This document shows, piece by piece, positions 12,858-49,407 of a stretch of 64,000 bases of DNA. Within the stretch, counting starts at the first letter, position 1; each line of letters starts with the position of its first letter. The DNA is from Bdellovibrionota bacterium (GTDB lineage Bacteria > Bdellovibrionota_C > UBA2361 > OMII01): assembly GCA_044337105.1 (NCBI GenBank), contig JBIIOE010000001.1:16309-80308 (forward strand), read 5' to 3'. A model generated the notes under the pieces. The model did not search any database and had not been told where the DNA came from. It worked only from the letters and a program-made list of their open reading frames with translations. The position numbers and the translations under genes were made by a program.

Positions 12858-13047
12858 TAGAGGGGAAGCGGGGGAAACCTACCCGTCACGAGAAAGTCGA
12901 GGTTGGTTTGATATTCGATTTTCGTGATGTGGAAAACCGCTGGTGTATCCGCTGCGAGACACCGAGGACTTTTCCACATCGCCCAAGTCGGAGAGCGGCC
13001 TAAGATCCGCCTTCGCGGCAGGAAGAAGGGGATTGCCTCGCTTCCTG
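12858..13047. mobile_element. MITE-like element, type 2
   Basis: Left end TAgaggggaagcgggggaaacctaccc, right end ggggattgcctcgcttcctga. The interior cgagaaagtcgaggttggtttgatattcgattttcgtgatgtggaaaacc is shared with copies at 26236 and 54701. Internal hairpin gatgtggaaaa/ttttccacatc. Confidence 0.7.
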
Positions 13048-13138
13048 AGGGATGACGTTCACTAAGAGAGCGGAGGTCTGGCCCTTTCCGAAGAAAGAGC
13101 GAAGAGGGGTATCGATACGTGCAACTATCGTGCTGCCC

Positions 13139-14209
13139 TCAGCCGCGCTTCGAGGGGGCGCCGCGTTTCATCAGCTCGAACAATTTAAGCATATCGCTAA
13201 GGCTTCTCTTTTGGTCATCTGCTAGCTGCTCGTCGGCGTAGTAGGGGTCTCCTTGAAAGCGTATCGTTGCAGTTTGAGCGCGCGCTAGAGCTTTGGCTGC
13301 CTCGATATGTTTGCTGGATGCGGTCAGGTCAACCCACTCCCAGACGTCTCCTGAGGAGTGATCTCGTTCAAAAGACAGAGCAGGAGATTGCCAGCGGTAG
13401 TCATCGGCGGCTACTTTAAAAGAATTCACAAAGAGCCAGTCGCTCCCGTAGTATTTCACCTTGAAGCGTAGCCACAGGTCACCCTTATTGAAGCCGATAT
13501 ATAACAGGGCGCCACTGCGGAGAGTGTCACCTTTTGGAGTTATGAAGAAGCGATATTCAACGGTATCCCTTTCGATATCCATCCCGAGCAGAAGCTCGGC
13601 TACTTCCGGATTGTTACCAAACCTCCTGTAAACCTCTCGAATCAGGCTTAGTTGATCTTCAGAGAGTCCGTTTCCGTTGCTGAGCTTAAACGACTTTGAC
13701 CCGTATGCGCCGCTAACAGAGGTAAGCAGAGTTTTCGCTCCTGGTACTACAGGCTCGGGGGAAAAAGCCTTTACTTCCTGATACAGTTTGAGTGGCAGTA
13801 TGGAAGAGGTCGATTTGTATTTATTTCCCGCTTTTGCATACGAGCGGAACACGAGTCTTTCTCCGTTTTCCAATACTACCGGGTAAAAATCGAATCCCTG
13901 TGAATCAGTTTTAGCTGGCTGAGAACTCTCAAAATAGCCTTTCATGGCTCTGTATTTTTCGTACGGAAGCGTCTGGCTGAAACAGGTGCTTGACTCCATA
14001 CCTGAACAGAAGCCGCTATAACCTTCCTTCTCTGAAGGATTGCCTAAATCGGCGAAGACGAAGAGCTCTTTCCCGTTCGGCTCAAATACAGCGGCATCTG
14101 GCGTCCCCTCTTTTGTCGGAGAGCCTGCAAGAATCTCAGCATTTCTATTTGCATGGCAGCTGGTCAGAACAGCAAGGAGAAAAAGTGTAGTCACCGCGTG
14201 CCGTTTCAT
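13139..14209 (-). CDS. Hypothetical lipoprotein
   Basis: ATG 14209 (AGGAAA 7 nt upstream) gives MKRHAVTTLFLLAVLTSC, which contains a lipobox. The gene looks AT-richer than its neighbours by eye. Confidence 0.6.
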   Translation of the reverse strand: MKRHAVTTLFLLAVLTSCHANRNAEILAGSPTKEGTPDAAVFEPNGKELFVFADLGNPSEKEGYSGFCSGMESSTCFSQTLPYEKYRAMKGYFESSQPAKTDSQGFDFYPVVLENGERLVFRSYAKAGNKYKSTSSILPLKLYQEVKAFSPEPVVPGAKTLLTSVSGAYGSKSFKLSNGNGLSEDQLSLIREVYRRFGNNPEVAELLLGMDIERDTVEYRFFITPKGDTLRSGALLYIGFNKGDLWLRFKVKYYGSDWLFVNSFKVAADDYRWQSPALSFERDHSSGDVWEWVDLTASSKHIEAAKALARAQTATIRFQGDPYYADEQLADDQKRSLSDMLKLFELMKRGAPSKRG

Positions 14210-14374
14210 AATTCGATTTCCTATCTTGAGGTACATTTCCTTGTTGTATCAGACCAACTCCTTACCGCAAAAAAGATTCCGAGAATAGCAAGATGTGATT
14301 GCGGCCTTATATGTAGATGTTATCCGAATAGGAGCCGAGACTAGGGCGGGGGCACGGCCTCGTCGGAACTCCTA

Positions 14375-14995
14375 TCAGCCGCGATAGCTCCTAAAGGCAT
14401 CGAGGATCTTCACAGCCGCTTGGTTTAGCGCAACACGTTGTGCTTGGGATGCTACACTGCGTGCAAATGCATGCTGCTCAGCAAGAGGTAGAATCACCCC
14501 CGCAGAGAAGCGCTTGTCTTGGCTGATAAAAGTTCCCTCGGTCGGAAACGCAGCGACGAGTGCTCCCGTGCGTCCATCGAGCACAGTGATATCCATAACA
14601 ACGACACCTTGAAGCTCTGAACTCTTGCTTGAGATTGCCCCAGGGACGAAGATGCGACTTTGGCCTCCTTCGACCTCATGCACTTCCTCTGTTACGAGCG
14701 CTTTGAGAATAAAAGGTCCCACTGCGCCTTGTGGTAGATCGGCCTGATACTTACCGGAGCCAAGCGGCTTTGCTGCTGTAGGGGTAAGAAGCACGAAATT
14801 GCCGACTCCGGCTAGAGACGACGTGAACTGCGCTGCGATGTTAATGTCTCGACGTGAGACCTGCCACGAACGTTGGGTGACATCAAGGGCACCGTCAGTG
14901 TGCTGAGTAAGATGATTTTGTGCGTTACTCTTAGTGATGCTTTGACCTGACAACTCTCCTTCTATCTCTCTGTTGTAGCTCCGATCTCGCTGCAC
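14375..14995 (-). CDS. Hypothetical protein (possibly CsgG/LpoB-like periplasmic domain)
   Basis: 206-aa ORF with a GTG start. The block VVVMDITVLDGRTGALVAAF is reminiscent of CsgG-family beta-strand segments, but the match is weak. It overlaps the upstream lipoprotein ORF by 34 nt. Confidence 0.45.
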   Translation of the reverse strand: MQRDRSYNREIEGELSGQSITKSNAQNHLTQHTDGALDVTQRSWQVSRRDINIAAQFTSSLAGVGNFVLLTPTAAKPLGSGKYQADLPQGAVGPFILKALVTEEVHEVEGGQSRIFVPGAISSKSSELQGVVVMDITVLDGRTGALVAAFPTEGTFISQDKRFSAGVILPLAEQHAFARSVASQAQRVALNQAAVKILDAFRSYRG

Positions 14996-15486
14996 GGTTG
15001 ACGTGTGGTGGCTGTTTGGTCTGCAGCTTGTCGTAGAGCCAAAGTCTTAGTCTGCGATTCGGATGCTTCCTTTTCGCGGGTTCGTACTGTATCCCGAGCG
15101 ACTCCGCGTAACGAGTCGGTTGATTCAGCCTTGTCCGATTGGCTGCCGTGCTGTTGCGAAGACTGATGGGCTCGTATCTTTATATGGTATCTCGATCCGC
15201 TCAACACTGCTCGAGCAGTGCCAACGATAACCCCAAAAAGACCCGTGAACGGCAGGAAGTAGATACCGGTCGCTCCTTGTCCCTGAAGATGCTGTAAAGG
15301 CCAGAGTGTATAGAAGGCACCACACGTCACCGGCGCGGAGGCTCCCGCCGCGATCGATCCAAGGCCGAGGCCGAAGGACTCGAGCATAGAGCGGTCGTAC
15401 TCACTCGATACTCGAGGATTGATCTCCCGAGCGCTACATGAAGCGATAAAGCTCGCGAGCAATACGAGATAGATTTCCTTGAACAC
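14962..15486 (-). CDS. Lipoprotein with glycine-zipper-like hydrophobic region
   Basis: MFKEIYLVLLASFIASC contains a lipobox. The Gly-rich segments GLGLGSIAAGASAP and GLFGVIVGTA follow. The C-terminal tail is polar and low-complexity. Confidence 0.55.
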   Translation of the reverse strand: MFKEIYLVLLASFIASCSAREINPRVSSEYDRSMLESFGLGLGSIAAGASAPVTCGAFYTLWPLQHLQGQGATGIYFLPFTGLFGVIVGTARAVLSGSRYHIKIRAHQSSQQHGSQSDKAESTDSLRGVARDTVRTREKEASESQTKTLALRQAADQTATTRQPCSEIGATTER

Positions 15487-15522
15487 TCCCAGTAGATCGG
15501 CTGCGATTTTCTAAACTTAACA

Positions 15523-15548
15523 ATAGGGCGGAGCAAAACGCCCGTCAC
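15523..15548. repeat. Degenerate MITE terminus downstream of htpG
   Basis: aTAgggcggagcaaaacgcccgtcac resembles the type-2 left end (gggaagcgggggaaacctacccgtcac). Confidence 0.35.
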
Positions 15549-15562
15549 TCCGGGCTTGCTTT

Positions 15563-17452
15563 TTATCCTCCAACCATCATCTTGGTCATCTTCTTCACGA
15601 AGCCCGCGGGATCCTCGAGCTTCGTTCCTTCGCTGAGAAGTGCCTGACAATACAGCAGCTCGGACCACTCCTTTTGCGTGTCTCGCGGCAGGTCCTTCAT
15701 GCGAGTGAAGACCGGATGTTCTGGATTGAGCTCCATCACCCGCTTGGTTTTCGGCATCTCCTTACCCATCTGCCGATAAAACTGCTCCATATACTGTGAG
15801 TTGCCATCGTCGTTTACCAAGCAAACAGCGGAGTCGGTGAGGCGGGTCGACAGGCGTACGTCTTTGACGTGCTCAGACAGGGCGGATTTCACGATTTCCA
15901 TGAGGGACCCGAGCTGCTCTTGCTGCTCTTTGAGCTTCTCTTCGCGCTCTCTCTTTTCGTCATCGGAATCGAGTTCGAGCGAGGGGTCGGATACGGATTT
16001 GAACTCGAAGTCCTGATACTTGTCGAGGCGTGGTGCAACGAACTCGTCGACTGGGTGATCGAAGAGTAGCACTTCGTATCCCTTCTGGTTTAGTCGCTCG
16101 AGCAGCGGACTGCTCTTGAGTACCTCAAGTGCGTTGCCCGAGAGATAATAGATCGCCTTTTGTTCATGCTTCATGCGGGCGACATACTCAGCGAGTGTTG
16201 TCGGCTCGCTCTGAGTCGATGAATTAAAGAGAAAAATCGGCAAGAGGGAGTCCTTTTTGTCGAACTCTCGGACCAGCCCTTCCTTCAGTGTAGCACCGAA
16301 GTTGGCCCAAAACGCCTCGTATTGCTTGCGGTCATCGGTGAGCATGTCTGCGAGCGTCTTGAGAACCTTCGTCGTCAGCGCGCGTCGTATCTGGGCGATC
16401 TGTCGGTCCTGCTGAAGTATCTCTCGAGAAACGTTCAATGAGAGGTCGCTACTGTCAACCACGCCTTTCACGAAACGAAGATAGGGGGGTAGCAGCTCTT
16501 CGCAGTCATTCATAATCAGAACGCGCTTCACGTACAGTGAGAGTCCACGCTCGCTACCTTCGTAATCGAAATTCCAAGGGCGGGAAGGGGGGATGAACAT
16601 CAGAGCGTGAAACTCCATCGTTCCTTCCGCTTTGTAGTGAACCGTCTTGAGTGGTTCGGAGCGATCGTGTGTGAGGTGTTGATAGAACTCTTGGTACTCT
16701 TCGGTGCTAACGCTCGAAGCAGGCTTAGTCCAGATAGCTTTCTGACTATTGAGGACCACATCCTCTGTGGTCGTCACCTCCTGCGAGGGGTCTATCGTGC
16801 TCTTTTCCTTGCGTGATACCTCCATCTTCACCGGGTAGCCGATGAAGTCCGAGTGTTTCTTGATGATTGAACGGAGTACCCATTCGTCGGTGTAATCTTC
16901 GAGTCCACCTTCCTCGCCTGTGCTCGGTTTGAGGTGTAGGGTAATGGAGGTTCCTGTGCCAGCCTCGCGAACCGTGGGCTCGATGGTGTAGCTTCCCTTG
17001 CCATCCGACTCCCATCGCACGCCCTCGGACATACCTGCCCTCTGTGTCTCCACCGTGACCTTATCGGCTACGATGAATGCAGAGTAGAACCCCACACCGA
17101 ACTGGCCGATCAGATCGGCGTTCTTTTCCTTTGCCAGCTTGAACTGCTTGGTACCTGAGTGCGCTATCCGCCCCAGGTATTCTCGAATCTCCTCGGCGTT
17201 CATACCGATGCCGTTGTCCGATACCGTGAGCGTTCTAGCCTGCGGGTCTGGGGTAAGGCGAATGACGGGCTCGTACCCCTGCGGCATGAGGTCGGTGTTA
17301 GTAAGGGCTTCGATCTTCAATTTGTCGAGAGCGTCGGATGCGTTGGATACGAGCTCTCTCAAGAATATCTCTGGGTGCGAATAGAGAGAGTGGATAATAA
17401 GGTGAAGGAGCTCGTTAACTTCGGTTTGAAATTGTTCGGTTGTTTTTTCCAT
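15563..17452 (-). CDS. htpG: Molecular chaperone HtpG (Hsp90)
   Basis: N-terminal GHKL ATPase motifs EIFLRELVSNASDALDK, DNGIGM and GQFGVGFYSAF. Full-length, 629 aa. Confidence 0.97.
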   Translation of the reverse strand: MEKTTEQFQTEVNELLHLIIHSLYSHPEIFLRELVSNASDALDKLKIEALTNTDLMPQGYEPVIRLTPDPQARTLTVSDNGIGMNAEEIREYLGRIAHSGTKQFKLAKEKNADLIGQFGVGFYSAFIVADKVTVETQRAGMSEGVRWESDGKGSYTIEPTVREAGTGTSITLHLKPSTGEEGGLEDYTDEWVLRSIIKKHSDFIGYPVKMEVSRKEKSTIDPSQEVTTTEDVVLNSQKAIWTKPASSVSTEEYQEFYQHLTHDRSEPLKTVHYKAEGTMEFHALMFIPPSRPWNFDYEGSERGLSLYVKRVLIMNDCEELLPPYLRFVKGVVDSSDLSLNVSREILQQDRQIAQIRRALTTKVLKTLADMLTDDRKQYEAFWANFGATLKEGLVREFDKKDSLLPIFLFNSSTQSEPTTLAEYVARMKHEQKAIYYLSGNALEVLKSSPLLERLNQKGYEVLLFDHPVDEFVAPRLDKYQDFEFKSVSDPSLELDSDDEKREREEKLKEQQEQLGSLMEIVKSALSEHVKDVRLSTRLTDSAVCLVNDDGNSQYMEQFYRQMGKEMPKTKRVMELNPEHPVFTRMKDLPRDTQKEWSELLYCQALLSEGTKLEDPAGFVKKMTKMMVGG

Positions 17453-17686
17453 ACGTCACGATCGTAAAGTTCAGTGGTTTCGATAGGAGGGGCAATAAGC
17501 ATTGGGCAGCAAAAATTCAAGGGGGTGGCCGCTGGGTGGATATAAATACAGCGGCTACGACGGAATTTGCGGGCAGTGCCGAGCTGTGAGAGGGTCAAAT
17601 CACTGTTTCGGGGCGCACGCCACCCTACGGAGACAAGGCAAAACCCCTCCCAGCTGCGAAGACGGAACTTGTCAAGGAGGCTAATC

Positions 17687-18025
17687 GTGAATTGTATCTA
17701 TCACATTACAACGAAAGCAGAAGCCGAAAGCGCCTTGCGCCGAGGAGAATACCTTCCCGCTGACTTCGAGAAAGACACCTTCATACACTGCTCCTATTCG
17801 CAGCAGATTGAACGCGTAGCGAATTTGAGATTTCGCGGGTGCTCCGATCTGGTACTGCTGAAGATAGACCGGTCTCGTGTGATGTGTCCGATAATCGACG
17901 AGAACCTCGAAGGAGGATCGGAGCTTTTCCCTCACATCTATGGCCCCTTACCAAGGGAGGCGATTGTGGAGGTGCTGGAGCTTCCATGCCAATCGGACGG
18001 AACGTTCGAGATCCCGAGTTTGTAG
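17687..18025 (+). CDS. DUF952 family protein
   Basis: IYHITT..W......Y.P..F..DTFIHCS....L.LL.ID......PIIDENLEGGSELFPHIYGPL matches the DUF952 pattern. GTG 17687 sits 6 nt downstream of AAGGAGG. The longer ORF from 17567 is probably an over-extension. Confidence 0.75.
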   Translation: MNCIYHITTKAEAESALRRGEYLPADFEKDTFIHCSYSQQIERVANLRFRGCSDLVLLKIDRSRVMCPIIDENLEGGSELFPHIYGPLPREAIVEVLELPCQSDGTFEIPSL

Positions 18026-18185
18026 CAGAGTTAAAAGATCTCTCTGGTTCCACTGTGAGGTACCAATCGAATCTGCTCGAGCTCGTTACAAGCGGTAGTC
18101 AAAAGAGGCGCAACACTTCATCGTCACTGCCGATTACTACCAGCATATTCCGTCTCGTGCCTTATTGTGGCAGCATCGGTGAGGT

Positions 18186-20948
18186 ATGCCTCCGCGTCGT
18201 TCGTTCCGTCAAAAACCAGCTTGGCAGAGTGCCGGCACCCCGATCGTCTCGTATGTGCGCGAGGGGGCTCGGGTACGGGTTGATTTCTCGTACTCGCCGA
18301 CCCGAGTGAAAGCGGTCAAGGCCGTCCAAGGGGCTCGCTTTCACCCCGACGACAAAAGTTGGTCTGTACCCTTCACAGCGATTGAAAGTCTTCAGACCTC
18401 GAAGGAGTTTCCAGCTATACAGGTACTCAACGGACTCGGCGATGGTAGCGTTGCGCCAGAACCGCTCGACCACGCCATGACGACGTTACGTGAGAATCCG
18501 TTCAGAGTTTTAGAAGGTGTAATCGCTGCCGTCTGTCCGGAGGTTGTGATACGGCTTCATCCTGAGAAGCGACGCTTGCGGGTTGTTCCACGCTTGAGTT
18601 CGACCGGCCATAAGATCGTCATGAAGAGTCCGGGAGCTCTTTTTTCGGCCTTCGATTGTTCCTATGTGGTGCCCACGGAGAGGCTTGGCGCTCTTTTAAA
18701 GAGGCTTCGCGATTCGCGCGTTACCTTCGCCGTGGATGAGGCGGCGGGTGAGGAGCTGGCTCTCTCGGCATCGTTGCGAAATGAGATCATCTCGTCACCA
18801 ACGCTCTTTGGCTCGGAGCAGCTCGGCGAAGCCCTTTTGGTCCCGTTCGTAACTGCCGTTCAGCGTGAAGGGCGAACCTTCCGGCCGTGCTACTTCACCT
18901 CTGAACAGTTCAAGCTCGCATTCCCCGGTGTACAGCGAAAAGGAACACAGAAGCCATTTGAACTCGACGAAAAGGGGCTCTTGAAGCTCAGTGCGCGTCT
19001 CGATGCGTTACCGTTTACGGTGTGGCTCACGCGAGATGTGCACGACTTCCTGGAGCGTAAACGTGCGGATCTCCTGGCTGAGGTGAGTAACGTCGAAGGA
19101 CCGCTCGAGGATTCGGCGCTCGAGGTGCTCTCGCTGCCGCTCATGTGGCGCATCTCCACTTCGGGACGCGGTTCTCTGGTGATCCATCTACCGCCCGAAA
19201 GTGAGGTGCGTGAGCTCGTCGTCTCGCGCTGTATGGAGCTGCTCGGAACGCGCTACGATCGCGAGGCGAAGTGTTTGATTATCGAGATACCGGACTCGAA
19301 GCTCTCCTCAGTGGTCGCAGAGGTGACTCACTTATGCGAGGTGCACGGCCTTTCTCTGATTCCCAAGAGTGAGAGCTTTGCCGAGCTGGAGACGGAGGTG
19401 CGTAAGCGAACGGCGCTGCGTGAAGTGGGTGCGTATTACGCGTCGCTCGACGATATTCCGGCGGAAAATGTGACGGGGCTCGACCCTGAACACTCTGCAC
19501 GACTTTTTCCTCATCAACGGGTGGCGGTGCAGTGGCTTTCGCAGGTTCCGCACGCTTTCCTCGGTGACGACATGGGGCTGGGAAAGACACTCTCAGTTCT
19601 TTCGTACTTCTCTGCATTGCGGCGCTCCTCTGGCTTTCAATTACTGCTTGTCGTGTGTCCGAATTCACTGACACGCAACTGGCTGCGGGAAGCTAAGATG
19701 TGGTTTCCCGAGCTACGAGCAACAGTGCTCGCTGGGGACAAGAGCTCAAAGGCGTGGGCTCTGCGGCTCCTGACGAGCGGGGCGATCGATTACGATGTGC
19801 TGGTCGTCAATTACGAGGCCGTGCGGCTAGATTACGTCATCCCGGAGTTGGAAAAGCTCACCGAGCAACGCACGACACTTCTGTGTCTCGATGAATCGCA
19901 ACGCGTCAAGAACCCACAGGCAAAGACCTTCAAGGCGCTGGTGGATCTGGCGCCGCGGTGTAGTCGTCGGGTGCTCCTGAGCGGAACTCCGACACCTAAA
20001 GATGTAACCGATCTGTGGGCGCAGATGCGTATCCTGGACGGTGGTGAGAGGTTCGGTAAGAGTTTTTACAAATGGCTCAACTCCGTAGCGGAGCTTGGAA
20101 CGGAGTACAGCGACTTCGCGGTGAAGAAGTTTCACGACGAAGCGGTCAACGAGAGCATCCTGCGCGTTCACGAGATTATGCTGAGACGGCGTAAGGAGCG
20201 GGTTGTAGATCTACCCGAGAAGACCTTCACGATCCGTGAGATTGAGCTCTCTGGGAGCCAGCGCGAGCGATACGACGAGATTCGCGAAGGGCTCATCCTG
20301 CGCATGCGAGCCCTATCTGGGGAGCAGTTCGTTCGTGAGATTACAAACATCCTCGAGGAGTACCTACGCGCGGTTCAGGTTGCTTCAAATCCTCGCTTGA
20401 TAGATCCGCAGTGGAAAGGAGAGCCGGCCAAGTTTCTCGAGCTCGACGAGATCGTCGACGAACTGGTTCGAGAGCAGGGTCAGAAGCTCGTGGTGTGGAC
20501 CAACTACCTGGGCAATGTCCGGGAGCTGGCAGAGCGCTATAAGGATCTCGGAGCCGCGCAGTTTAGCGGGGAGGTGTCGGCGTCCGATCGAGAGGTCACG
20601 GTGCGCGCCTTTCAGGAGCACGAGACTCCGCGGATTCTCGTGGCGGTTCCGGCCGCTGGTGGTGTGGGAATTACTCTCACGGCCGCTCAGACCGCTGTGT
20701 ATATCGACAAGACGTGGAACGCCGAACACTGGATGCAGTCGGTCGACCGGATACACCGCATAGGCCAAAAGGGCACGGTAAACATCGTTTCTCTCTTGGG
20801 ATGCAAGGTCGACGAGATCATTCATTGGAACCTACGTCGCAAGGAGCGAACGCAGGCTGAGGTGCTCGGCGACGAAAAGCGAAGCGGGAAGGGGGATATC
20901 GGACTGCCATCACGAGCTGAGCTGCTTGAGGCGCTCGAGGGGGATTGA
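18186..20948 (+). CDS. SNF2-family helicase with ~430-aa N-terminal HARP-like modules
   Basis: Helicase core motifs LFPHQRVAVQWL, DDMGLGKT, LCLDESQRVKN, LLSGTPTPKD and GGVGITLTAAQTAVYIDKTWNAEHWMQSVDRIHRIGQ. N-terminal block VRVDFSYSPTRVKAVKAVQGARFHPDDKSWSVP resembles the HARP pattern. Confidence 0.9.
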   Translation: MPPRRSFRQKPAWQSAGTPIVSYVREGARVRVDFSYSPTRVKAVKAVQGARFHPDDKSWSVPFTAIESLQTSKEFPAIQVLNGLGDGSVAPEPLDHAMTTLRENPFRVLEGVIAAVCPEVVIRLHPEKRRLRVVPRLSSTGHKIVMKSPGALFSAFDCSYVVPTERLGALLKRLRDSRVTFAVDEAAGEELALSASLRNEIISSPTLFGSEQLGEALLVPFVTAVQREGRTFRPCYFTSEQFKLAFPGVQRKGTQKPFELDEKGLLKLSARLDALPFTVWLTRDVHDFLERKRADLLAEVSNVEGPLEDSALEVLSLPLMWRISTSGRGSLVIHLPPESEVRELVVSRCMELLGTRYDREAKCLIIEIPDSKLSSVVAEVTHLCEVHGLSLIPKSESFAELETEVRKRTALREVGAYYASLDDIPAENVTGLDPEHSARLFPHQRVAVQWLSQVPHAFLGDDMGLGKTLSVLSYFSALRRSSGFQLLLVVCPNSLTRNWLREAKMWFPELRATVLAGDKSSKAWALRLLTSGAIDYDVLVVNYEAVRLDYVIPELEKLTEQRTTLLCLDESQRVKNPQAKTFKALVDLAPRCSRRVLLSGTPTPKDVTDLWAQMRILDGGERFGKSFYKWLNSVAELGTEYSDFAVKKFHDEAVNESILRVHEIMLRRRKERVVDLPEKTFTIREIELSGSQRERYDEIREGLILRMRALSGEQFVREITNILEEYLRAVQVASNPRLIDPQWKGEPAKFLELDEIVDELVREQGQKLVVWTNYLGNVRELAERYKDLGAAQFSGEVSASDREVTVRAFQEHETPRILVAVPAAGGVGITLTAAQTAVYIDKTWNAEHWMQSVDRIHRIGQKGTVNIVSLLGCKVDEIIHWNLRRKERTQAEVLGDEKRSGKGDIGLPSRAELLEALEGD

Positions 20949-40305: not shown

Positions 40306-40708
40306 TGAGGCGCAGCAAAACCGTTGCGGTCCACCCCTGGCTCGTGATTCTGCCGTCTTAAATCAAGATGCGGTGAGAGTTCTGGCTCTATGAGCTGCTT
40401 AGCAACCGATTGACGCTTTCCGGCGGCAGCACGGTGCTCCCTCCAGCCCACGCAGAGTGTGGGGGAGATTTGACCCGTAGGCTCGTTTCAGTCTTTGCAA
40501 ACGAGCTCCCAAGGTGCGTTGTTCCTGGGGAGTATCTAGGAAACTACGTAGGAAACGTCGATAAACTGGATCGAACTTCCGTACGCATAGAGTAAACACG
40601 TAGGTGGATGTCTTAACAGACTACAGTCAGCGTTTGCTCTTCGTTCGGTTGTCTCTTCTCTGCCCGCATTTTCGTGGTGTCACAAAAACAAAAACGAAGG
40701 AGAGACGT

Positions 40709-40864
40709 ATGGCATTAGTAGTTGGCCCCACCGACAAAGAGAATCGAGAGGGATTTGGCGAGTTTTTACGGGAACAACAAAAGCAGGTCACCGAGCTTAG
40801 AGGAAGCGATGGTACTTCCGTGTTCGCACTCGCAGACTACCTTCTGGGGGACTGGACAATCTAA
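40709..40864 (+). CDS. Small hypothetical protein
   Basis: 51 aa from ATG 40709, with AAGGAGAG 6 nt upstream. No motif. Confidence 0.3.
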   Translation: MALVVGPTDKENREGFGEFLREQQKQVTELRGSDGTSVFALADYLLGDWTI

Positions 40865-40916
40865 GCCTTTCATCGTGTTCTCTACGCGAGTCGGAACTCG
40901 CCGATGCGCTCGGCCC

Positions 40917-40949
40917 TAGGGAAGGGAGGGGGTTTGCCTCGCTTCCCTA
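40917..40949. mobile_element. Minimal MITE remnant (terminal repeats only)
   Basis: TAgggaagggagggggtttgcctcgcttcccTA. An 11-bp perfect inverted repeat ccctagggaag/cttccctaggg includes the flanks. Confidence 0.6.
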
Positions 40950-41306
40950 GGGGACTTGGGCTTATGAACGCATGAAGGCTGTGAGCCCCGAAGTTTTCTC
41001 GTGCGACGGAAAGCTTCCGGCTCCCGGCACATGCCTGTTCTTACCAATTCCAGACACTGCAGAAAGGATGGTGTCAATTTTTCATCTCCACACAGAGGTG
41101 CAATATCAACCACTTTGCCCAGACAAAGACCGGTATAGACTTGTTTGCGTAAGCTCCTAGCTGTTTGCCCATCTCGGGGCTTTCGGCAGTGCGGTATCCA
41201 TATCAAACCGACATATCAGAGATTGCTGACTATCCTTCCGCGCGTGTCACCTGTAGGCTCTTTGTCGTACCTTCGTTAGAGTACATCATCAATCGGAGAT
41301 ATTATC

Positions 41307-42194
41307 ATGATAGGCTTGAGTGCTCGGACGATTGCGCGCGTTTTTGACTCGGTTGTAACCCCCAAGAACACTCGTTGGTTCGAGGTGTGCATTATCCGGC
41401 TTGCCATAGTGGGGTTCGTCGCCCACTTACTCTTTCTTTTTCTTTTCAATCATGTCCCCGGCCTCTATCGAGGACATTCCTTCAACTACCTCAAGGCGAT
41501 TTACACTCCCTTTAGCTTCATTCTCGTATACGAGGTGTTTCTCCTTGTCATCATTCTCCCCGAATCGATGACCGAATTTATCGGAAAGCAGTTTGAGATT
41601 GTGACGCTGATCACGCTTAGAAGCTTCTTTCACGATATCGCAGGTATCAATATGCATGCCCCGGTGCACATCGGGGATCCTGAGGTGCTCTGTTTGGGGT
41701 ATGATCTGCTCGCATCACTGGTTATGTTTACTCTGACGATATGCTTCCATCGACTTCACTCGAGGCAGAGAGATCATCACCAGCAACCTACCCTCCTGCA
41801 CTTCATCGAGTTGAAAAAGTCTGTTTCAGCCTGTTTGATAATTATCTTAGTGATCACCAGCGCATACAGTGTCTGGCTGTGGGCCTCGGGGGCATTGCCT
41901 GCGCTGCTCAACAACTCGGATTTTCCAAACCCAAACACCTTTTTCTATCTCGATTTCTTCAACGTAATGATCTACGCCGACGTGCTGCTTTTGATTATCT
42001 CCTTCTTGTACGACTCCTCCTTTTATAACGTAGTGCGTAACGCTAGCTTCATTATCTCTACGATACTTCTGCGGATGTCGCTCAGTATGGAGAGGCCGAT
42101 GAATCATCTCGTTGCCATATCCGCCTTCAGCTTTTCAGTGATGGTTATGTTAATCATACACCTGAAGATGAAGTACCCCATCCGAAGTGCCTGA
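41307..42194 (+). CDS. Polytopic membrane protein, unknown function
   Basis: 295 aa with ~7-8 hydrophobic helices. Visibly AT-richer than the surrounding DNA. Confidence 0.6.
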   Translation: MIGLSARTIARVFDSVVTPKNTRWFEVCIIRLAIVGFVAHLLFLFLFNHVPGLYRGHSFNYLKAIYTPFSFILVYEVFLLVIILPESMTEFIGKQFEIVTLITLRSFFHDIAGINMHAPVHIGDPEVLCLGYDLLASLVMFTLTICFHRLHSRQRDHHQQPTLLHFIELKKSVSACLIIILVITSAYSVWLWASGALPALLNNSDFPNPNTFFYLDFFNVMIYADVLLLIISFLYDSSFYNVVRNASFIISTILLRMSLSMERPMNHLVAISAFSFSVMVMLIIHLKMKYPIRSA

Positions 42195-42202
42195 CAAGAG
42201 CA

Positions 42203-42210
42203 GGGGGGGG
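42203..42210. repeat. G8 homopolymer tract
   Basis: caGGGGGGGGcttt, 9 nt after the stop of the 41307..42194 membrane gene. Confidence 0.8.
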
Positions 42211-42484
42211 CTTTGAGCGGGTTCGAGTGGGCAATTCACGGAATTGTTCTGCTGGGGACCGAAACGTCGGGAAATCGATTACGTGAGTTCAAAGCCTGCT
42301 AGACGACAGAGGCCTCATCTCTGTGTCCTCGAGAGGATCTCTTCGAGGGTAGGGTAAAGAGAATCCGACCGAATAATACTTCCGCCGCCACGTTGCTCGA
42401 TGGTTTAGCCTGGGGTGAAGCCTCCCCTGTCAGCAAACACAGGGACCATGCAGCTGGCGATAATATAGGCGTGGTCGGAGGCCT

Positions 42485-42494
42485 CCCCCCCCCC
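42485..42494. repeat. C10 homopolymer tract bracketed by two GAGGCCTC palindromes
   Basis: cgGAGGCCTCccccccccc GAGGCCTCgaac, intergenic. Confidence 0.8.
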
Positions 42495-42567
42495 CGAGGC
42501 CTCGAACAAGCTCAAGAAGTGAACGGAACGGAAGCGCAAGGCAAGTACTTAGTCGAGATTGATATCG

Positions 42568-42659
42568 GTAAGGAAGCGCGGCAAAACCTACCCCATAGTC
42601 TCACTTTTGAAATAACCACGTGAACGTGCGAGGAAACATAGGTTTTGCCTCGCTTCCCT
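42568..42659. mobile_element. MITE-like element, type 1, lacking the hairpin module
   Basis: Apart from the first TIR base after the TA (a vs g), it is identical to 34755-34917 except for the absence of 71 nt bounded by acgtgc direct repeats. TA flanks both ends. Confidence 0.75.
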
Positions 42660-42845
42660 AAGGTTGCTGACGAGGTTCGCCAATCCTTCGCAGGCTCTTC
42701 CTTCGGCAACCGCAGCCAAACAAATACAGCGCTGTCCGAGGAAAGCGAGGTATACCAAGGATTGAGAGAAACTTGTACGCATGAATGTCAATAGGGCAGT
42801 CTGAGGTTGTTCTAGTTCGGTTGCACAGGCGCTTCGGTGTGAGGA

Positions 42846-43304
42846 TTGTGTCAGCCTCTATTCGAGCCCTTGAGTAGTGTCGATCGAACGGCTATTGATT
42901 CACTCATGCAGCAAGAGTTTCGCAGTTTTAAGGACTTGGCATCGTCCATAGGCCTAGAGCCGGAAGAAGGGGTATCGCCACGGCGTTCCTCGCTGCCTTG
43001 CCTCCAAGTTCCTGGGCGATATACATCCTCCAGTCTGCTCGACTTCCTGCGAGACCAATGCGCGCCCGAGAGCGTTGCTGCATGCCCGTTGGGGCCTTCG
43101 CCGGGCCTGATGCCCGAGCTTTTGGTCCACGCTAGAGAGCAGGCGAATACTGTATATGCCGTGTCGCGGGGAGGCGGCAGACTCGAAGCCTCGGGCTTCG
43201 AAAGCAAGGCGGTCACGGTGATGACGGCACTGAACCCACAGCTACGGATCGAGCCCGAGCCAGCAGCCTCTAATTGTCGACTATTGGCCACTCAGATCAG
43301 ATAA
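42846..43304 (+). CDS. Hypothetical protein
   Basis: 152-aa ORF with a TTG start (alternative ATG 42906), upstream of and co-oriented with the 595-aa gene. The antisense ORF 42851..43291 is Arg/Ser-rich and looks like a shadow frame. Confidence 0.3.
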   Translation: MCQPLFEPLSSVDRTAIDSLMQQEFRSFKDLASSIGLEPEEGVSPRRSSLPCLQVPGRYTSSSLLDFLRDQCAPESVAACPLGPSPGLMPELLVHAREQANTVYAVSRGGGRLEASGFESKAVTVMTALNPQLRIEPEPAASNCRLLATQIR

Positions 43305-43426
43305 GGAGCGGGGTTTTTCAGAGGCTTCATCTAGCCATTCTCGCTTTTCCCTGTCCGGAAGCAGCAGGCTGATAAGAAGATCTTCATGAATGCAGCAGAC
43401 GGTGGTATGTTGCCTAAGCTGGCAGT

Positions 43427-45214
43427 GTGAGCACTATGCAGATTATCGGTCCTCAACCAACTTCAAGCGAACTCCTCTCTGATTTGGGAAGCTTCAGTAA
43501 CGCCCCCAAACGTCGAGTGCTCAACCTGATCACCGGATTACGAGCTGAGGAGCAAGAAGGAGGGCCCCCTAGGCTCGTGGTTGATGTAGGGCCTCTGGCA
43601 CCTGAAAATTACAAGATTGCTGCAAATAGACTGGCCAAGGCCCTTACTGGAGAGCTAACCAAAAACTGCGGCGGTAGGTCTAGCATTGTGGCATCAATAG
43701 ATATCGAGCCGCAGGGGGTAGGGAGGACTGTACCTGCCAACAGACCCGGTCTCGGTATCGACATAGCTCAGCTCGATAACTTTTTGAGCGGCCAACTCGC
43801 TTCGTTGGAGTTATCGCCGCACACAATCACCTTGTTCGAGGTGGGTTTAGATAGCAACAGGTGGATTTTTCTCTCTCTGATGTACTCGAGGGGGCCTCGG
43901 TGTGCCGAGCTTGCATGTCGGCAGCTGAGAGCGGGGCTGAAGGAGCTGTTCGGAGTGCACCTGCGGCTGGTAGCCGCGCCGGAGAGGAACCAGGCGTCGG
44001 CTCTTGCTGGCAGTGGTCTTCATAGTAGTACGCAGTCGAGTGAAGAACCAAATCAGGCTGATTATGGTGTCAGCACGCATCGAGGATTTCGAGCTGGCCG
44101 ACGTGTGGATCGCCCCACGCCCGAAGGGGTTGTTGGGTGGGGAGACGTTTCTTTCACTAGTATCGATGCCGTATGTGCCCAGATACTTGAAGATATGATC
44201 TCCGCAGCTCCGGCTTTCGAGCCGACTCTCGCGGCTGGCGAGCTTACGGATCTGCGAGTGGTCACCCCGTTGCGCATTCCGGGCTTTGAAGCCCTCAGCC
44301 CGGGTGTAACCCTACCTGGCATCGGAGTTCAAGGACTTCTTGCACCGGGAATCGGTCCAGTAGGGACTGGACAAGTCCTGTTAGTCGAGGCCTGTAATGG
44401 CAGAGCATGCGACGTAGACCTCGCCAGTCGGGTAATGTTTGATCTGCCCGCTGGTGCGGAGCTCCGCAGCAGCGGGATAGAGCTGAATGCCGATGAGATG
44501 AAGCTCCACACCCAGCTACAATCTATTCGCGATGCCGCGCGTATTCTCCACGACAGAGATGTGGCTATCGGAGCAGATTTGCCGATTCAAGTAGCACGCG
44601 TGGAACGAGATCCGTCCAAGAGCTTGCGTTTTGTACGAGCGGAGAGAGTTGTTTCCTTGGTCATGAGGTTTATGCAGGAGCAGATCCTCAGATGGCGCGA
44701 TGAATTAGATGAGCCGCCTGCTCTATTGGTATCGCGGCCGAGATTCAAAGATCTGGTATCGGCGGACCGAGTCATTGATAAAGCCGCAGCTCAATTGGCT
44801 CCTTATGGCCAGCTCGGTGTCAACTCTATGCGACTCGAGCCGGCGAGTTTGTTGTGTCCGGAGCATCGCGCGATTATCGTACAAGCACTTATTGCAGGTA
44901 AACATCGCCGAGAGCTGAATTTAATTCCTGGGCTGCTTCACGATGCTTACTGCAATCGCAAGCTGCATCTTTTAGAGCAGGACGAGAGCTCTCTTCCGGG
45001 AGATGCGTTGCACTTGAAGCGCGGTAAGTTCGGGATTGTCAACAACCTCCAGGTTGCGAGCGCGGTCCTCGATTTTCCGCTATTCGATACAGAGCTTTTA
45101 CGCAGAGCTTTTAACGTGAGTGCTCGTCGTAAAAACATCGACGGTGCTAGTGCCACCCTCTTGGGAGGTCTGATTCGAAAGCAGCAGGCGAAATTGCTCG
45201 ATCGCTTGTGGTAA
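43427..45214 (+). CDS. Large hypothetical protein (595 aa), no recognisable domain
   Basis: Uninterrupted 595-aa ORF with ordinary amino-acid composition. I could find no Walker, HExxH, nuclease or other motif. Alternative ATG at 43436. Confidence 0.6.
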   Translation: MSTMQIIGPQPTSSELLSDLGSFSNAPKRRVLNLITGLRAEEQEGGPPRLVVDVGPLAPENYKIAANRLAKALTGELTKNCGGRSSIVASIDIEPQGVGRTVPANRPGLGIDIAQLDNFLSGQLASLELSPHTITLFEVGLDSNRWIFLSLMYSRGPRCAELACRQLRAGLKELFGVHLRLVAAPERNQASALAGSGLHSSTQSSEEPNQADYGVSTHRGFRAGRRVDRPTPEGVVGWGDVSFTSIDAVCAQILEDMISAAPAFEPTLAAGELTDLRVVTPLRIPGFEALSPGVTLPGIGVQGLLAPGIGPVGTGQVLLVEACNGRACDVDLASRVMFDLPAGAELRSSGIELNADEMKLHTQLQSIRDAARILHDRDVAIGADLPIQVARVERDPSKSLRFVRAERVVSLVMRFMQEQILRWRDELDEPPALLVSRPRFKDLVSADRVIDKAAAQLAPYGQLGVNSMRLEPASLLCPEHRAIIVQALIAGKHRRELNLIPGLLHDAYCNRKLHLLEQDESSLPGDALHLKRGKFGIVNNLQVASAVLDFPLFDTELLRRAFNVSARRKNIDGASATLLGGLIRKQQAKLLDRLW

Positions 45215-45215
45215 G

Positions 45216-45437
45216 CACAAGGTCACTACCTTCGGAGAGAAGCCTGTGGGAGACCTGGTAAATCTCGAAATTGAACGAGGCACTCAGGTGGTTGTAGACA
45301 CCATGAGAGACTTCCTCGAAGAGCGATTTGGAAAGCTGCTGCCTGCGTTCGAGAGTCTGCTGGAACGGTCCGGGATGACCGCAGAAAGCCTGGTAGGCGT
45401 TACGGCGCCGGCCTTACCGGGATCGAAGACCGTATAG
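45216..45437 (+). pseudogene. Riboflavin synthase C-terminal remnant
   Basis: Translation HKVTTFGEKPVGDLVNLEIERGTQVVVDTMRDFL parallels the C-terminus of E. coli riboflavin synthase as I recall it (..[31 protein letters not shown]). No N-terminal ~150 aa and no start codon are present. It begins directly after the 595-aa gene stop. Confidence 0.6.
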
Positions 45438-46580
45438 GGACGAGAGGCAAAGACCTCTTCCTGCAGCATAAGCCGATTTTCCCTTCCTACGCAGGTGAAT
45501 CGCCACCTCCGGCAGGGGATCCCTCAACAGATATGGGAGACCGCTTTCGCTCACCTTTGAGATAGCCGATCTCTTTCCTGTCCAGCTCTTAAGAATGAGC
45601 CCGGGAGCGATCTCCGGTTTCGCATACCGTACATGCTGGTAGTCAGGGCAGGTAAATTTTTCTCCCTGGCTCGCCATGCATGCCAGGTGGGGAAAATTTA
45701 CCCCCGCGGCAAGTGAGCCAAGTAAGCTTCTCCAGTAGCGTGGATTGGCCTCGAGCACCTTGGCCTGATTCGCTTCTTCGTCGAACACCAGATCGAAGCA
45801 CGCGACACCGGACCAGCGCACGGAACTCACGAGCCTTTGAATTGAATCGAGCACACCTTCATCATGGATGAACTCGACTGCGGCTGAAGGGCCGAAGGGT
45901 TTGTGTGATCGAACTATGACACGCTGGATCGTATATGCGAGGATCTCGCCCTCCTGACAGAGTACGCTACAACTCAGATCTGGTCCCTTAATGAACTCCT
46001 GAACGAAGAACTCGGCCGGTTCGCCCTGCTCGGCGAGGTAATCCAATACTTGATGCGGATACTCGCACAGCCGAATTCCACTCCCTCCTTCTAAGTTGCG
46101 TGGCTTGACGAGGACCGGAAACCTCATCTCGAAAAGCTTTTCCTCATCAAGGAGCTCGCCTGAGGGCCAAAGGATTCTCGGATGTGGAATGCTTTCGAGG
46201 TTTAGTATTTTCGAGAATCGTAGTTTGTCCGAGAAGGCGTCGAGCACATCCAGAGACGCCAGTGGGGGCAGACGAGAAACCGGCGCCAGCTCGTTCTGGA
46301 ATTCCGCTACCAAGCGAATTCCAGCCAGCCCGGTCGGCACAATGACATCCGCAGACACCTCTCGCGCTGCTGCCTGGATCACCTCGACTCTTGCTCGATT
46401 GAATCCATCGACGCAGTGGGTTAGGAATCGGTAAAGGTGTCGCGAATACCGGATCGGTGCTCGTGCGTCTCGAGACAGCACAGCGATCTTGGTATTCGGG
46501 CTTTGAGCAAGGCACCGCAGGACTCGCAACGCCAATTCATCTTCACCATCGGGTATGAGAACTGAAACTGCTGCCTTCAT
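45414..46580 (-). CDS. ATP-grasp domain protein (carboxylate-amine ligase-like)
   Basis: Pre-ATP-grasp N-domain, then FPVLVKPRNLEGGSGI, FFVQEFIKGPDLSCSV and ACFDLVFDEEANQAKVLEANPRYW. Confidence 0.75.
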   Translation of the reverse strand: MKAAVSVLIPDGEDELALRVLRCLAQSPNTKIAVLSRDARAPIRYSRHLYRFLTHCVDGFNRARVEVIQAAAREVSADVIVPTGLAGIRLVAEFQNELAPVSRLPPLASLDVLDAFSDKLRFSKILNLESIPHPRILWPSGELLDEEKLFEMRFPVLVKPRNLEGGSGIRLCEYPHQVLDYLAEQGEPAEFFVQEFIKGPDLSCSVLCQEGEILAYTIQRVIVRSHKPFGPSAAVEFIHDEGVLDSIQRLVSSVRWSGVACFDLVFDEEANQAKVLEANPRYWRSLLGSLAAGVNFPHLACMASQGEKFTCPDYQHVRYAKPEIAPGLILKSWTGKRSAISKVSESGLPYLLRDPLPEVAIHLRRKGKSAYAAGRGLCLSSLYGLRSR

Positions 46581-46710
46581 GAAGAGCCTCCTACCTTAAA
46601 GCTAAGTTCCAGCATCGACGCTTGCATGGCGTCTGTCGCGCCCGATATGAGCCGACACACGAGCACCCCGCTCTATTGAGCACCTTTAATCAAAGTCTGC
46701 GCGGGGGCTT

Positions 46711-46730
46711 ACGATTCCCCCGGGAATCGT
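46711..46730. promoter_or_regulatory. 20-bp palindrome in a divergent intergenic region (candidate operator)
   Basis: acgattccc-cc-gggaatcgt has 9-bp perfect arms. It lies ~130 nt from both the ATP-grasp start (46580, minus strand) and the DUF892 start (46862, plus strand). Confidence 0.3.
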
Positions 46731-46861
46731 TCTCCCGATTAGTGCAGTGTGCAGTTCGGGCTATCTCATCATGGGTGACAAGGATCATTACTGACACCGC
46801 AGTATGTCGGTAAGGTGTCAGCCCTACACGAGCACTCAAATGACTTTCAGGGGAGGATCCT

Positions 46862-47422
46862 ATGGCTAAATTAGCAACACTACGCGACGCATTGGTTGAG
46901 GAATTGAAGGATCTCTACAGCGCCGAACAACAGCTCCTTCAGGCGCTACCCAAGATGGAGAAGCGCGTTAGTAACGACGACCTCAAAGAAGCTTTTCGCT
47001 CTCACCTGGACGAAACCAAGCAACAGGTAGATCGACTCAATCAGATCGCACACGCGCTTGGCACGAAACTCACTGGTAAGGTCTGCGTCGCTATGCAGGG
47101 TTTAATTGAAGAAGCAAACCAGACTATACAGCGTGAGAGCGACAACGAAGATCTCATTGATACCATCGTGGTGAGCTGTGCGAAGCGGATCGAGCACTAC
47201 GAAATAGCTGGCTACGGAACCGCGCGGGCGATCTCCGATGCGCTCGGAGAGGAGGAGATTGCAGACCTCCTCGACCGTACTCTTGCCGAAGAGTCGGCAG
47301 CGGACGAGAAGCTTTCGGGCATCTTCGAAGAGAGTCTTCTTCCCAAACTCGCACGACTCGACACTGAGTCGGAAGAGGAGCAGGAGGAGGAGGAAGGCGA
47401 GGGCGCAAGCGCGCGGGAATAA
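46862..47422 (+). CDS. Ferritin-like DUF892 (YciE/YciF) family protein
   Basis: LVEELKDLYSAEQQLLQALPKM and IEHYEIAGYGTA. Acidic Glu-rich tail. Confidence 0.85.
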   Translation: MAKLATLRDALVEELKDLYSAEQQLLQALPKMEKRVSNDDLKEAFRSHLDETKQQVDRLNQIAHALGTKLTGKVCVAMQGLIEEANQTIQRESDNEDLIDTIVVSCAKRIEHYEIAGYGTARAISDALGEEEIADLLDRTLAEESAADEKLSGIFEESLLPKLARLDTESEEEQEEEEGEGASARE

Positions 47423-47475
47423 GCCTTCTCATTCCATGCATTGCGCTCCGGCCTGGCTTTGCTACAGTCTCAGCC

Positions 47476-47868
47476 ATGCGTCGCGCAATGTTTATGCTAG
47501 GAATCGTATTATGCCTCATCGGCGGCTACCTATCGGCCTCTACCTATCTGATGCTCGATCGAGCGATAGCGGTAGAGGCCGAGGTGGTTGCTGTCGAGGA
47601 GCGTACGGGCCCCCCCAAGCCCCGCAGTAAGACCCCGATCCACCTTCGCTATACGCTGCCTGACGGAGGAGAACACCTCTCTAAGACCTCTATGCCGATG
47701 CTCCAGAAGGTAGAGGTTGGCGATCGGGTCCGTATACTGGTCGATGGTGCCAATCCTGAAATGGTAACGCTACCGCTGCTCTCAGTGCTCTGGGCTACCC
47801 CGATAACCCTCTGTGTGGTTGGAATAGCCCTGCTTGTCGGATCACGCCTGGCACTCCGCGGGGCTTAA
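47476..47868 (+). CDS. DUF3592-like membrane protein
   Basis: N- and C-terminal TMs flank a beta-rich segment (AEVVAVEER.......IHLRYTLPDG). The pattern recalls DUF3592. Confidence 0.55.
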   Translation: MRRAMFMLGIVLCLIGGYLSASTYLMLDRAIAVEAEVVAVEERTGPPKPRSKTPIHLRYTLPDGGEHLSKTSMPMLQKVEVGDRVRILVDGANPEMVTLPLLSVLWATPITLCVVGIALLVGSRLALRGA

Positions 47869-47966
47869 CGAGGGCTTTTCTGCTGCCTGCTACACGTCGA
47901 TTCTACTGGTGTACGTGCATAGCAAGCGCTACACTATCGAGGTTATTTCTTCTCGGCAGGAGCCCC

Positions 47967-48422
47967 ATGATTCGATCAACTGTCTTCATCATCTCGGCTA
48001 TTGTGGCGCTCTGCGGATGCCATGGAGCCCAGTATCACCGTAATGCGGTCTCTACGGATAGAAACTCGGCTCTCACCGTTGGTACGGTACAGCGAGAAAT
48101 CCGTGTGGGAATGTCAGGCGCAGACGTGGCAGGAGTTCTCGGCTCGCCCAATATGGTGACGAGTGACGACCAGCGTCGAGAAACCTGGGTGTACGACAAG
48201 ATCTCGACAGAGCGTGCATACTCCGCGGATTCTGGTGGGATCTCCACCCTTATCCTTGGTGGTGCCACGATAGGCGACGGTCTAGTCGGGGGAGGCGCCG
48301 GGCCTTCGTATGGCTCTGGTAGTGGTGCTTCATCGACAACTCAAAAGACCCTTACAGTGATCATCAAGTTCGACTCTGATAGACGCGTGCGGGACTTCGC
48401 CTATCACTCTAGTCAGTTTTAG
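47967..48422 (+). CDS. Lipoprotein with SmpA/OmlA (BamE-like) domain
   Basis: Lipobox IVALCGC. LTVGTVQREIRVGMSGADVAGVLGSPN....ETWVYD fits the BamE-like fold pattern. Gly-rich insert. Confidence 0.6.
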   Translation: MIRSTVFIISAIVALCGCHGAQYHRNAVSTDRNSALTVGTVQREIRVGMSGADVAGVLGSPNMVTSDDQRRETWVYDKISTERAYSADSGGISTLILGGATIGDGLVGGGAGPSYGSGSGASSTTQKTLTVIIKFDSDRRVRDFAYHSSQF

Positions 48423-48436
48423 GTGGCGAGGGCTAG

Positions 48437-48967
48437 ATGGTGAGGACCTGGCTCGTAGGTTTGATATCTCTCTGTGCATTTGGTTGCATAGGATGCGCTC
48501 CTCAGGTCCCGCGTGGTGCTCTCGAGCTCAGTCCGGAATCACTCACGCAGCGGCGTTTACAGACCAGAAGGTTTGACACCCCTGACGAGGTCCGGTTGCT
48601 GCAGGCGTCGCTGGGAGTCTTGCAAGACCTTGGGTTCAACATCGACGAATCGGAGTCTCGACTGGGAATAATAGTTGCCTCGAAAAATCGTGATGCTACC
48701 GATCCTACGATGGTCATTGGAGCGATAGCCATCGGGGCTTTGGTCGGGCAGGACATCCAATACGATACCACGCAACGTATTCGCGCATCTCTCGTTACAC
48801 GACCAGTTTCGCGCGGCGAAACCCTCGTGCGCGTCACGTTCCAACGCACGGTATGGAATCAAGCGGGACAGATTACGAGGAACGAAAGCCTCGACGGTCC
48901 GGAACTATACCGCGAGTTCTTTTTTAAGCTTTCGAAATCGGTATTTCTCGACGCCCACGGTATTTAG
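48437..48967 (+). CDS. Hypothetical lipoprotein (paralog of 48991..49407)
   Basis: Lipobox region CAFGCIGC. Shared block LQTRRFDTPDEVRLLQASLGVLQDLGFNIDESESRLGIIVASK. Confidence 0.6.
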   Translation: MVRTWLVGLISLCAFGCIGCAPQVPRGALELSPESLTQRRLQTRRFDTPDEVRLLQASLGVLQDLGFNIDESESRLGIIVASKNRDATDPTMVIGAIAIGALVGQDIQYDTTQRIRASLVTRPVSRGETLVRVTFQRTVWNQAGQITRNESLDGPELYREFFFKLSKSVFLDAHGI

Positions 48968-48990
48968 GTAGAGGATTATAGGTAGCGGAC

Positions 48991-49407
48991 ATGGTGCAGA
49001 AGCTGTTGTGTACTCTCGGCCTTGTATTTGCTCTCCACGGGTGTGTTCCCCTAAACCAGCGTGTGCTGGACTCCGATCAGTCGCAGCTCCAGCTACGCCA
49101 GATCCAGTCGCGTGTATTCGACACTACCGAGAGGGAGAAGACGCTACGAACGGTGATAGCTACCCTCCAAGATCTCAACTTCGTGGTCGACAAGGCGGAC
49201 CTCGGTTTGGGGACCGTAACCGCTACGAAGCTCGACGGTTACGCTCTGCGAATGACGGTAAGCGTGTATCCACGTGGTCAGCGTCAGCTCGTTGTTCGAG
49301 CGAATGGGCAATTCAACGATCAGCCTGTAGTCGATGCCGTTCCGTATCAAAGTTTCTTTGCCGCGCTGTCGCGGGCGATGTTCCTGACTGCTCACGCATT
49401 GGACTGA
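48991..49407 (+). CDS. Hypothetical lipoprotein (paralog of 48437..48967)
   Basis: Lipobox FALHGC. Shared block IQSRVFDTTEREKTLRTVIATLQDLNFVVDKADLGLGTVTATK. Confidence 0.6.
   Translation: MVQKLLCTLGLVFALHGCVPLNQRVLDSDQSQLQLRQIQSRVFDTTEREKTLRTVIATLQDLNFVVDKADLGLGTVTATKLDGYALRMTVSVYPRGQRQLVVRANGQFNDQPVVDAVPYQSFFAALSRAMFLTAHALD

Follow-up and report, generated by a model that had tools for sequence, protein, structure and literature searches.

The window, that is, the whole stretch of 64,000 nucleotides analysed here, corresponds to contig C24 of a MAG in 225 contigs (G000). Between a Ddl-like gene and an ATP-grasp gene it carries the following features, which are given by window position.

40314 to 45492, no strand: hypervariable patchwork flanked by a conserved gene on either side, with the relic inside it
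40357 to 40474, forward strand: SAM riboswitch RF00162 (45.0 bits, gathering score 44.4, E = 5e-8)
42846 to 43304, forward strand: 152-aa ORF without a Pfam match, apparently a longer gene cut down to its 5' part
43427 to 45214, forward strand: complete 595-aa gene, displaced from its usual operon, with orthologs in the relatives G049 and G015 and no Pfam or PADLOC match
45212 to 45218, forward strand: junction between the stop of the 595-aa gene and codon 167/168 of ribE-B, where one homology ends at 45212-45215 and the other begins at 45216-45218
45216 to 45437, forward strand: remnant of the 3' end of a riboflavin synthase gene of type B, spanning codons 167-239 (of 239) and the TAG stop
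45246 to 45437, forward strand: 63-aa ORF within the relic, starting with GTG, listed as a 63-residue product by automatic annotation in three public assemblies but probably no real gene
45438 to 45492, no strand: 55-bp spacer with no detectable homology to the relatives G021, G015 and G049
45414 to 46580, reverse strand: ATP-grasp gene, 388 aa (Pfam ATP-grasp_3, 3.8e-11)

Directly after the 595-aa gene, whose TAA occupies 45212-45214, a different frame starts at 45216 and reads HKVTTFGEKPVGDLVNLEIERGTQVVVDTMRDFLEERFGKLLPAFESLLERSGMTAESLVGVTAPALPGSKTV up to a stop at 45435-45437. Its 222 bases are the last 73 codons and the stop, about the last third, of a riboflavin synthase gene. An earlier sequence-only reading of this DNA had recognized the riboflavin synthase C terminus in this frame and had proposed a similarity search, and the searches bore it out. 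Against all PDB sequences (phmmer), the top match was E. coli riboflavin synthase 1i8d (RibE/RibC; E = 5.9e-4), in which the relic aligns to residues 169-202, the end of the second barrel and the C-terminal helix, which we take to be the trimer contact. BLASTP against the intact ribE of G000 gave 17/35 identical residues (∼49%) with an E value of 5e-10, and tblastn of the type-B ribE of G021 against the whole of G000 matched the relic site at 80% over 70 aa with an E value of 1.6e-29. Amino acid identity to residues 168-239 of the G021 enzyme is 78 to 80%, collinear to the stop, and DNA identity is 81% over 195 nt (window 45218-45412). The long idiosyncratic tail of the G021 enzyme is shared by the relic, as is the position of the stop. 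The homology to the C terminus of a bona fide ribE is significant and collinear, as descent implies.

The N-terminal part of the enzyme is missing, as had been noted, although the earlier figure of ∼150 residues has to be corrected to 166 codons: tblastn with both forms of ribE described below found no such sequence in the window or the whole genome, the intact gene on contig C38 excepted. A split gene with its N-terminal half elsewhere was rejected, as the window and genome hold no such half. We also rejected an upstream extension of the relic through the tail of the 595-aa protein, 'NIDGASATLLGG', which resembles the ribE motif 'IDGxSLTV' and is correctly spaced at 28 codons; at the DNA level, no homology to ribE-B extends left of 45216-45218. 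The orthologs of the 595-aa protein read 'NLDRVNATRLGD' at that position and all end in LL(D/E)RLW and the stop, so the tail with its 'IDGAS' motif is native to the 595-aa family.

Of the second barrel, the relic retains only about the last 18 residues. Pfam gave no family at an E value of ≤1 for the 73-aa translation, Lum_binding included, because only the last strands of that barrel remain. The two tandem Lum_binding (PF00677) barrels, the MFTGI start, and the first substrate site are all lacking, and without both substrate-binding barrels the relic cannot be an enzyme. With 73 of 239 codons, it derives from the riboflavin synthase family but is not a working member of it. The 73 codons of the relic contain no frameshift or internal stop and preserve every residue that is conserved among type-B enzymes.

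The ribE sequences of 40 relatives fall into two forms. Type A has 205 to 212 aa and the tail ...QAIVETVERI..., while type B has 218 to 239 aa and the tail ...TQVVVDTMRDFLEERLGKLLP.... An intact ribE elsewhere in the genome, for which the sequence-only reading had advised looking, was found in G000: it is of type A, encodes 207 aa, and lies on contig C38 directly after engB (all compared genomes are MAGs, and the assignment of C24 and C38 to one organism rests on binning). Its two Lum_binding domains (86.6 and 66.4 bits) are the sole PF00677 matches of the genome at an E value of ≤0.001. No intact ribE-B was found in G000 by tblastn of the whole genome. In a maximum-likelihood tree, the relic is sister to the ribE of G021 (support 97/90) within the type-B clade, which includes the ribE of other families of the order, and type A forms a separate clade restricted to this family. 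Judged by this placement, the relic is derived from the second, type-B lineage and not by descent from the working ribE of G000.

Both ribE lineages are present within a single genus, with one retained by each species. The two forms are distributed among the relatives as follows.

G000: type A and the 3' relic of B
G021: type B as the sole ribE and a 5' stub of A after engB
G049 and G015: type A alone, no trace of B
G044: intact A; full-length B with a TAA at codon 13 (L077, G044:C25 1537-2211); B fragment with an internal TGA (L090, G044:C63 1438-1734)
G041: A and a B fragment, residues 125-205, fused to an unrelated N terminus (L089, G041:C387 329-571)
G006, G011, G051, and G007, more distant and B-only: engB abuts the thioesterase gene, no trace of ribE-A

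Full-length type B is present in G021, G011, G006, G007, and G051, and the two B copies of G044 are ∼90% identical to each other. Among 56 metagenome loci related to the relic, none is closer than 73% and 53 are full-length ribE; the relic is therefore the tail of a normal gene of ∼239 codons and not a conserved small gene. The same short ORF as a conserved independent gene in relatives, which the sequence-only reading had named as the finding that would speak against a remnant, did not turn up. The ORF of the G021 stub (L098, G021:C57 1554-1650) has 31 codons: the first ∼20 correspond to the beginning of ribE-A (MFTGIVQGVATVKAVETASD...), and unrelated sequence runs from there to a stop. By eye, an internal deletion in frame, with a C-terminal 'TVE.I.A' kept, is suggestive, without support from a clean DNA alignment.

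EngB identity is 84 to 86% among G000, G049, G015, and G021 and 57 to 61% for G006, G011, G051, and G007, and HtpG identity is 92 to 93% between G000 and G021 or G049; by these identities, G000, G021, G049, and G015 form a tight clade. The combination of A with a B relic in G000, of B with an A stub in G021, and of decaying B in G044 and G041 indicates that the common ancestor held both genes. The simplest reading of these sequences would be a two-gene ancestor, from which each descendant lost one or the other. The HtpG of G000 is presumably the 628-aa protein at 15563-17452 on the reverse strand, which is HtpG (Hsp90)-like by its N-terminal motif. Of 36 genomes in the family, HtpG is present in only 4 (G000, G021, G049, and, at 75%, G041), a patchy distribution for a chaperone.

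Substitution rates were compared between the relic and ribE-B of G021 and between intact orthologs of the two genomes.

Relic against G021 ribE-B, all 72 codons: dS 0.84, dN 0.14, omega 0.17
Relic against G021 ribE-B, conserved 38 codons: dS 0.74, dN 0.048, omega 0.065 (4 non-synonymous and 13 synonymous)
Six intact G000-G021 ortholog pairs: dS 0.8-1.5 or saturated, dN 0.011-0.147, omega 0.014-0.10

The dS between the relic and G021 (0.84) falls within the genomic background of 0.8 to 1.5; dS is near saturation, and the timing is rough. Neutral evolution since the split would give a dN near half of dS, several-fold above the observed value, so ribE-B was constrained until recently. Measured against G044, the excess of relic dN over that of G021 is small, on 73 codons only. 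From these rates, the constraint would have acted in the lineage of G000 or in a similarly distant donor, and the truncation would be young.

If the relic were alive, this would account for the zero disabling mutations in 73 codons and the omega of 0.065 in its core. It could be so as a 63-aa trimerisation-helix peptide with a new function or as a stretch kept as the C-terminal tail and stop of the ATP-grasp protein, and we see a small chance that one or the other holds. The peptide would consist of the last barrel strands and the trimerisation helix and could have been kept for a different task, for instance to bind or regulate a partner. Its frame is open, it is annotated by gene callers, all of its conserved C-terminal residues are intact with a low omega, and an SD-like GGAGAG (45234-45239) lies 6 nt upstream of the GTG. 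The GGAGAG and the GTG are, however, ordinary ribE codons, in bases that encode F-G-E-K, and a search of 44900-45700 gave no promoter-like site. The relatives have no comparable short gene standing by itself, and the 53 full-length metagenome loci point the same way. The other B fragments start elsewhere, at residue 117/127 in G044 and 125 in G041, and that of G044 has a stop; the sole intact ribE of G000 is of type A and just ∼49% identical in this region. The prospects of a living 63-aa gene are accordingly slim.

Homology to ribE-B begins 1 to 3 nt after the stop of the 595-aa gene, and neither a repeat nor a notable microhomology was found at the junction. A MAG of 225 contigs from a habitat with many congeners could in principle contain an assembly or binning artefact that joined two related populations here. 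Two Logan assemblies from different runs (SRR10955595 and SRR27419734) are, however, 100% identical to the window over 42633-49091 and 43770-49100, across both junctions, and no shared repeat lies at the junction. The 41-kb contig of a third public record has the same gene order (592/595-aa gene, 63-aa ORF, ATP-grasp), and all public copies of the relic are identical. Since the junction is identical in two independent assemblies, an assembly chimera is excluded for practical purposes, and we give an artefact negligible weight. A fusion of the 595-aa protein to the ribE tail by frameshift or readthrough was rejected too: no slippery motif could be seen by eye in the overlap at 45174-45214, and the orthologs share the stop.

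The 595-aa gene had been regarded as an orphan, but it has orthologs with 62% identity in G049 (C137) and 59% in G015 (C16). There, it is the last gene of a 597aa-1246aa-595aa array that is convergent with tdk (L070 989-8426; L071 750-8128) and whose 1246-aa protein is a multihaem cytochrome c with LVIVD repeats. The 597-aa and 1246-aa partner genes and tdk were not detected in G000. The suggestion that DNA to the left of the relic was inserted or rearranged agrees with this result, as the 595-aa gene stands outside its operon and looks displaced. The copies of G049 and G015 are 81% identical to each other, against 60 to 62% for that of G000, whereas the flanking genes are about equidistant. 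Homology of the G000 gene to its orthologs extends exactly from start codon to stop codon. That it stops exactly where ribE homology starts indicates two pieces with different histories.

DNA synteny with G015 and G049 covers 37458 to 40313/15 and is found again from 45493-45499, at codon ∼365 of the ATP-grasp gene, among its last codons. Coding DNA identity among these three genomes is just 68 to 78%, with a dS of about 1, and neutral DNA would not align at such divergence, so that each border can be placed no more precisely than the nearest conserved coding sequence. The junction at 45.21 kb had been proposed as a boundary of an accessory segment. Synteny resumes only at ∼45.49 kb, however, which places the relic inside the patchwork, 55 bp from its right border, and makes 45.21 kb an internal seam between modules; the borders of the segment are at 40313-40315 and 45493-45499.

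The interval holds 5.2 kb in G000, an unrelated 1.0 kb with a 192-aa Cys-rich ORF in G015, and other genes in G049, and G044 and G011 are without even the ATP-grasp and DUF892 genes. In G000, the order is SAM riboswitch, two MITE copies, an unplaced membrane protein, the 152-aa ORF, the 595-aa gene, and the ribE-B stump. At the left edge of the segment, the riboswitch immediately follows the Ddl-like gene, and a tiny ORF, a mini-MITE, and the membrane protein (295 aa) lie downstream of it. Residues 6-139 of the 152-aa ORF are 54% identical to the N terminus of an ORF of at least 360 aa directly after the Ddl-like gene in G049 (G049:C55, L092 2-1081). Pfam revealed no integrase or transposase domain in any ORF of 40314-45492. 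Window positions 40340-40902 have a 69% identical paralogous stretch at G000:C89:8531-9108.

On the right of the segment, the ATP-grasp protein is 67 to 70% identical to those of G015 and G049 over residues 1-365 alone. Its last ∼23 codons (45414-45485) are lineage specific, and the tail after residue ∼365 differs by genome, with 23 aa in G000, 16 aa in G015, and about 5 aa in G049. The gene overlaps the relic in antisense over 24 nt (45414-45437), which hold its last 7 codons and stop, and its TAA (45414-45416) falls on a Leu codon of the relic, TTA, where G021 has CTG. An ancestral ribE convergent with the ATP-grasp gene, as the sequence-only reading had supposed, finds no counterpart: ribE was not seen beside this gene in G015, G049, G004, G002, G021, G023, or the 56 metagenome loci, so that ribE as ancestral to the site is unproven. 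It may have stood intact at the relic's spot or have come in a translocated or imported block; no sampled genome has ribE-B here.

The usual home of ribE-B is next to tRNA genes. In four type-B genomes, ribE is immediately downstream of a tRNA gene (L052 8610-9691; L053 8125-9196; L054 99-985; L055 1268-2178), which is Met(CAT) in G021 and Lys(TTT) in G011, G006, and G007. In the latter three, a conserved ∼210-aa gene, presumably alkA-like, follows ribE-B, and an ATP-grasp neighbour was found at none of the four loci. Contig C204 of G000 is collinear with G021:C8 to the last base of tRNA-Met, then has 13.5 kb of different DNA (6497-20083), and then is collinear again. This stretch replaces ribE-B and three further genes and carries MITE copies and a 1860-aa ORF, and its ORFs look IS/transposase-like. 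The break in homology after tRNA-Met shows that the G021-type ribE-B site has been overwritten in G000. A stop of homology exactly at a tRNA 3' end is also the pattern of an island at a tRNA. A 141-nt conserved block upstream of G021 ribE-B was considered as an FMN riboswitch left behind in G000:C204 and was rejected, since Rfam and ARAGORN identify it as the tRNA-Met gene.

Genes for tRNA are classic hot spots of exchange, and the position of ribE-B beside them in G021 and other species is one of several observations that would suit an arrival of the relic in an already truncated state, as a piece of the ribE-B of a G021-like relative that was imported or translocated, for example, together with the 595-aa gene. 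The relic lies inside a segment that differs among G000, G015, and G049, its neighbour is out of its native context and unusually divergent (60 to 62% against 81%), and a low omega is what one would expect if the piece had recently come from a genome whose copy was functional. On the other hand, the dS of 0.84 to G021 fits the vertical genomic background and no closer donor was found, the best metagenome match being 73%. The 595-aa and ribE homologies meet exactly at the stop, which argues for separate histories, and the ribE-A stub of G021 independently points to an ancestor with both genes. We consider an import of this kind unlikely.

Three genomes contain 3'-side fragments of ribE-B, and that of G044 is ∼90% identical to the full-length B of the same genome. 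Together with the proximity of ribE-B to tRNA genes, this might suggest an att-site duplicate, left by an integrative element with the 3' end of ribE-B as its target; the element would carry or displace a copy of that end. In E. coli, a duplicate of the 3' end of icd lies at the border of the phage-like element e14, and the relic is like it in being a 3' gene fragment at the edge of an accessory segment. It differs in that the variable segment has no integrase or transposase domain, no intact ribE-B target stands at the other border, no repeat flanks the relic, and the fragments share no crossover point, starting at 168 in G000, 117/127 in G044, and 125 in G041. This reading is already refuted for the most part, and we hold it to be highly improbable.

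In our view, the relic is quite probably a non-functional 3' remnant of a second riboflavin synthase gene, ribE-B, that was lost from the two-gene ancestor of G000, G021, G049, and G015. As found for relics of redundant genes, an intact isofunctional ribE-A is present elsewhere in G000, and relatives carry the sequence in full-length genes. The ancestor of these four genomes would have had isofunctional genes of type A, between engB and a thioesterase gene, and of type B, the latter resembling the ribE of the wider order. Since A and B would have been redundant, each lineage could lose one of them: G000 would have kept A (on C38) and lost B, G021 would have kept B and deleted most of A, and G049 and G015 would have kept A. 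After G000 and G021 diverged, purifying selection would have acted on ribE-B in the G000 lineage for most of the period, and the truncation of the gene would be recent. A deletion or an illegitimate recombination in a recombination-prone interval may then have joined codon 167 to the base after the stop of the displaced 595-aa gene, and the junction base would be the first that could be removed without harm to that gene. The relic would persist as the shared 3' flank of two convergent genes, where the ATP-grasp gene would incidentally draw its last 7 codons and stop from it.

Reciprocal gene loss and displacement is an established concept, and the term appears in passages of PMC4166000 and PMC1274311. 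The relic is a case of the same kind, in which one member of a redundant, isofunctional gene pair is lost (by xenologous or paralogous displacement or reciprocal loss), with pieces in G000, G021, G044, and G041. What sets it apart is the survival of both reciprocal relics in sister species. In itself, it is an ordinary pseudogene fragment of modest evolutionary interest, and it should be annotated as a pseudogene fragment and not as a 63-aa hypothetical protein. The interval between the Ddl-like and ATP-grasp genes appears as a hot spot that accumulates gene pieces of different origin. Taken together, the relic, the A stub of G021, and the decaying B copies of G044 and G041 would represent the isofunctional replacement of a housekeeping gene caught in progress.
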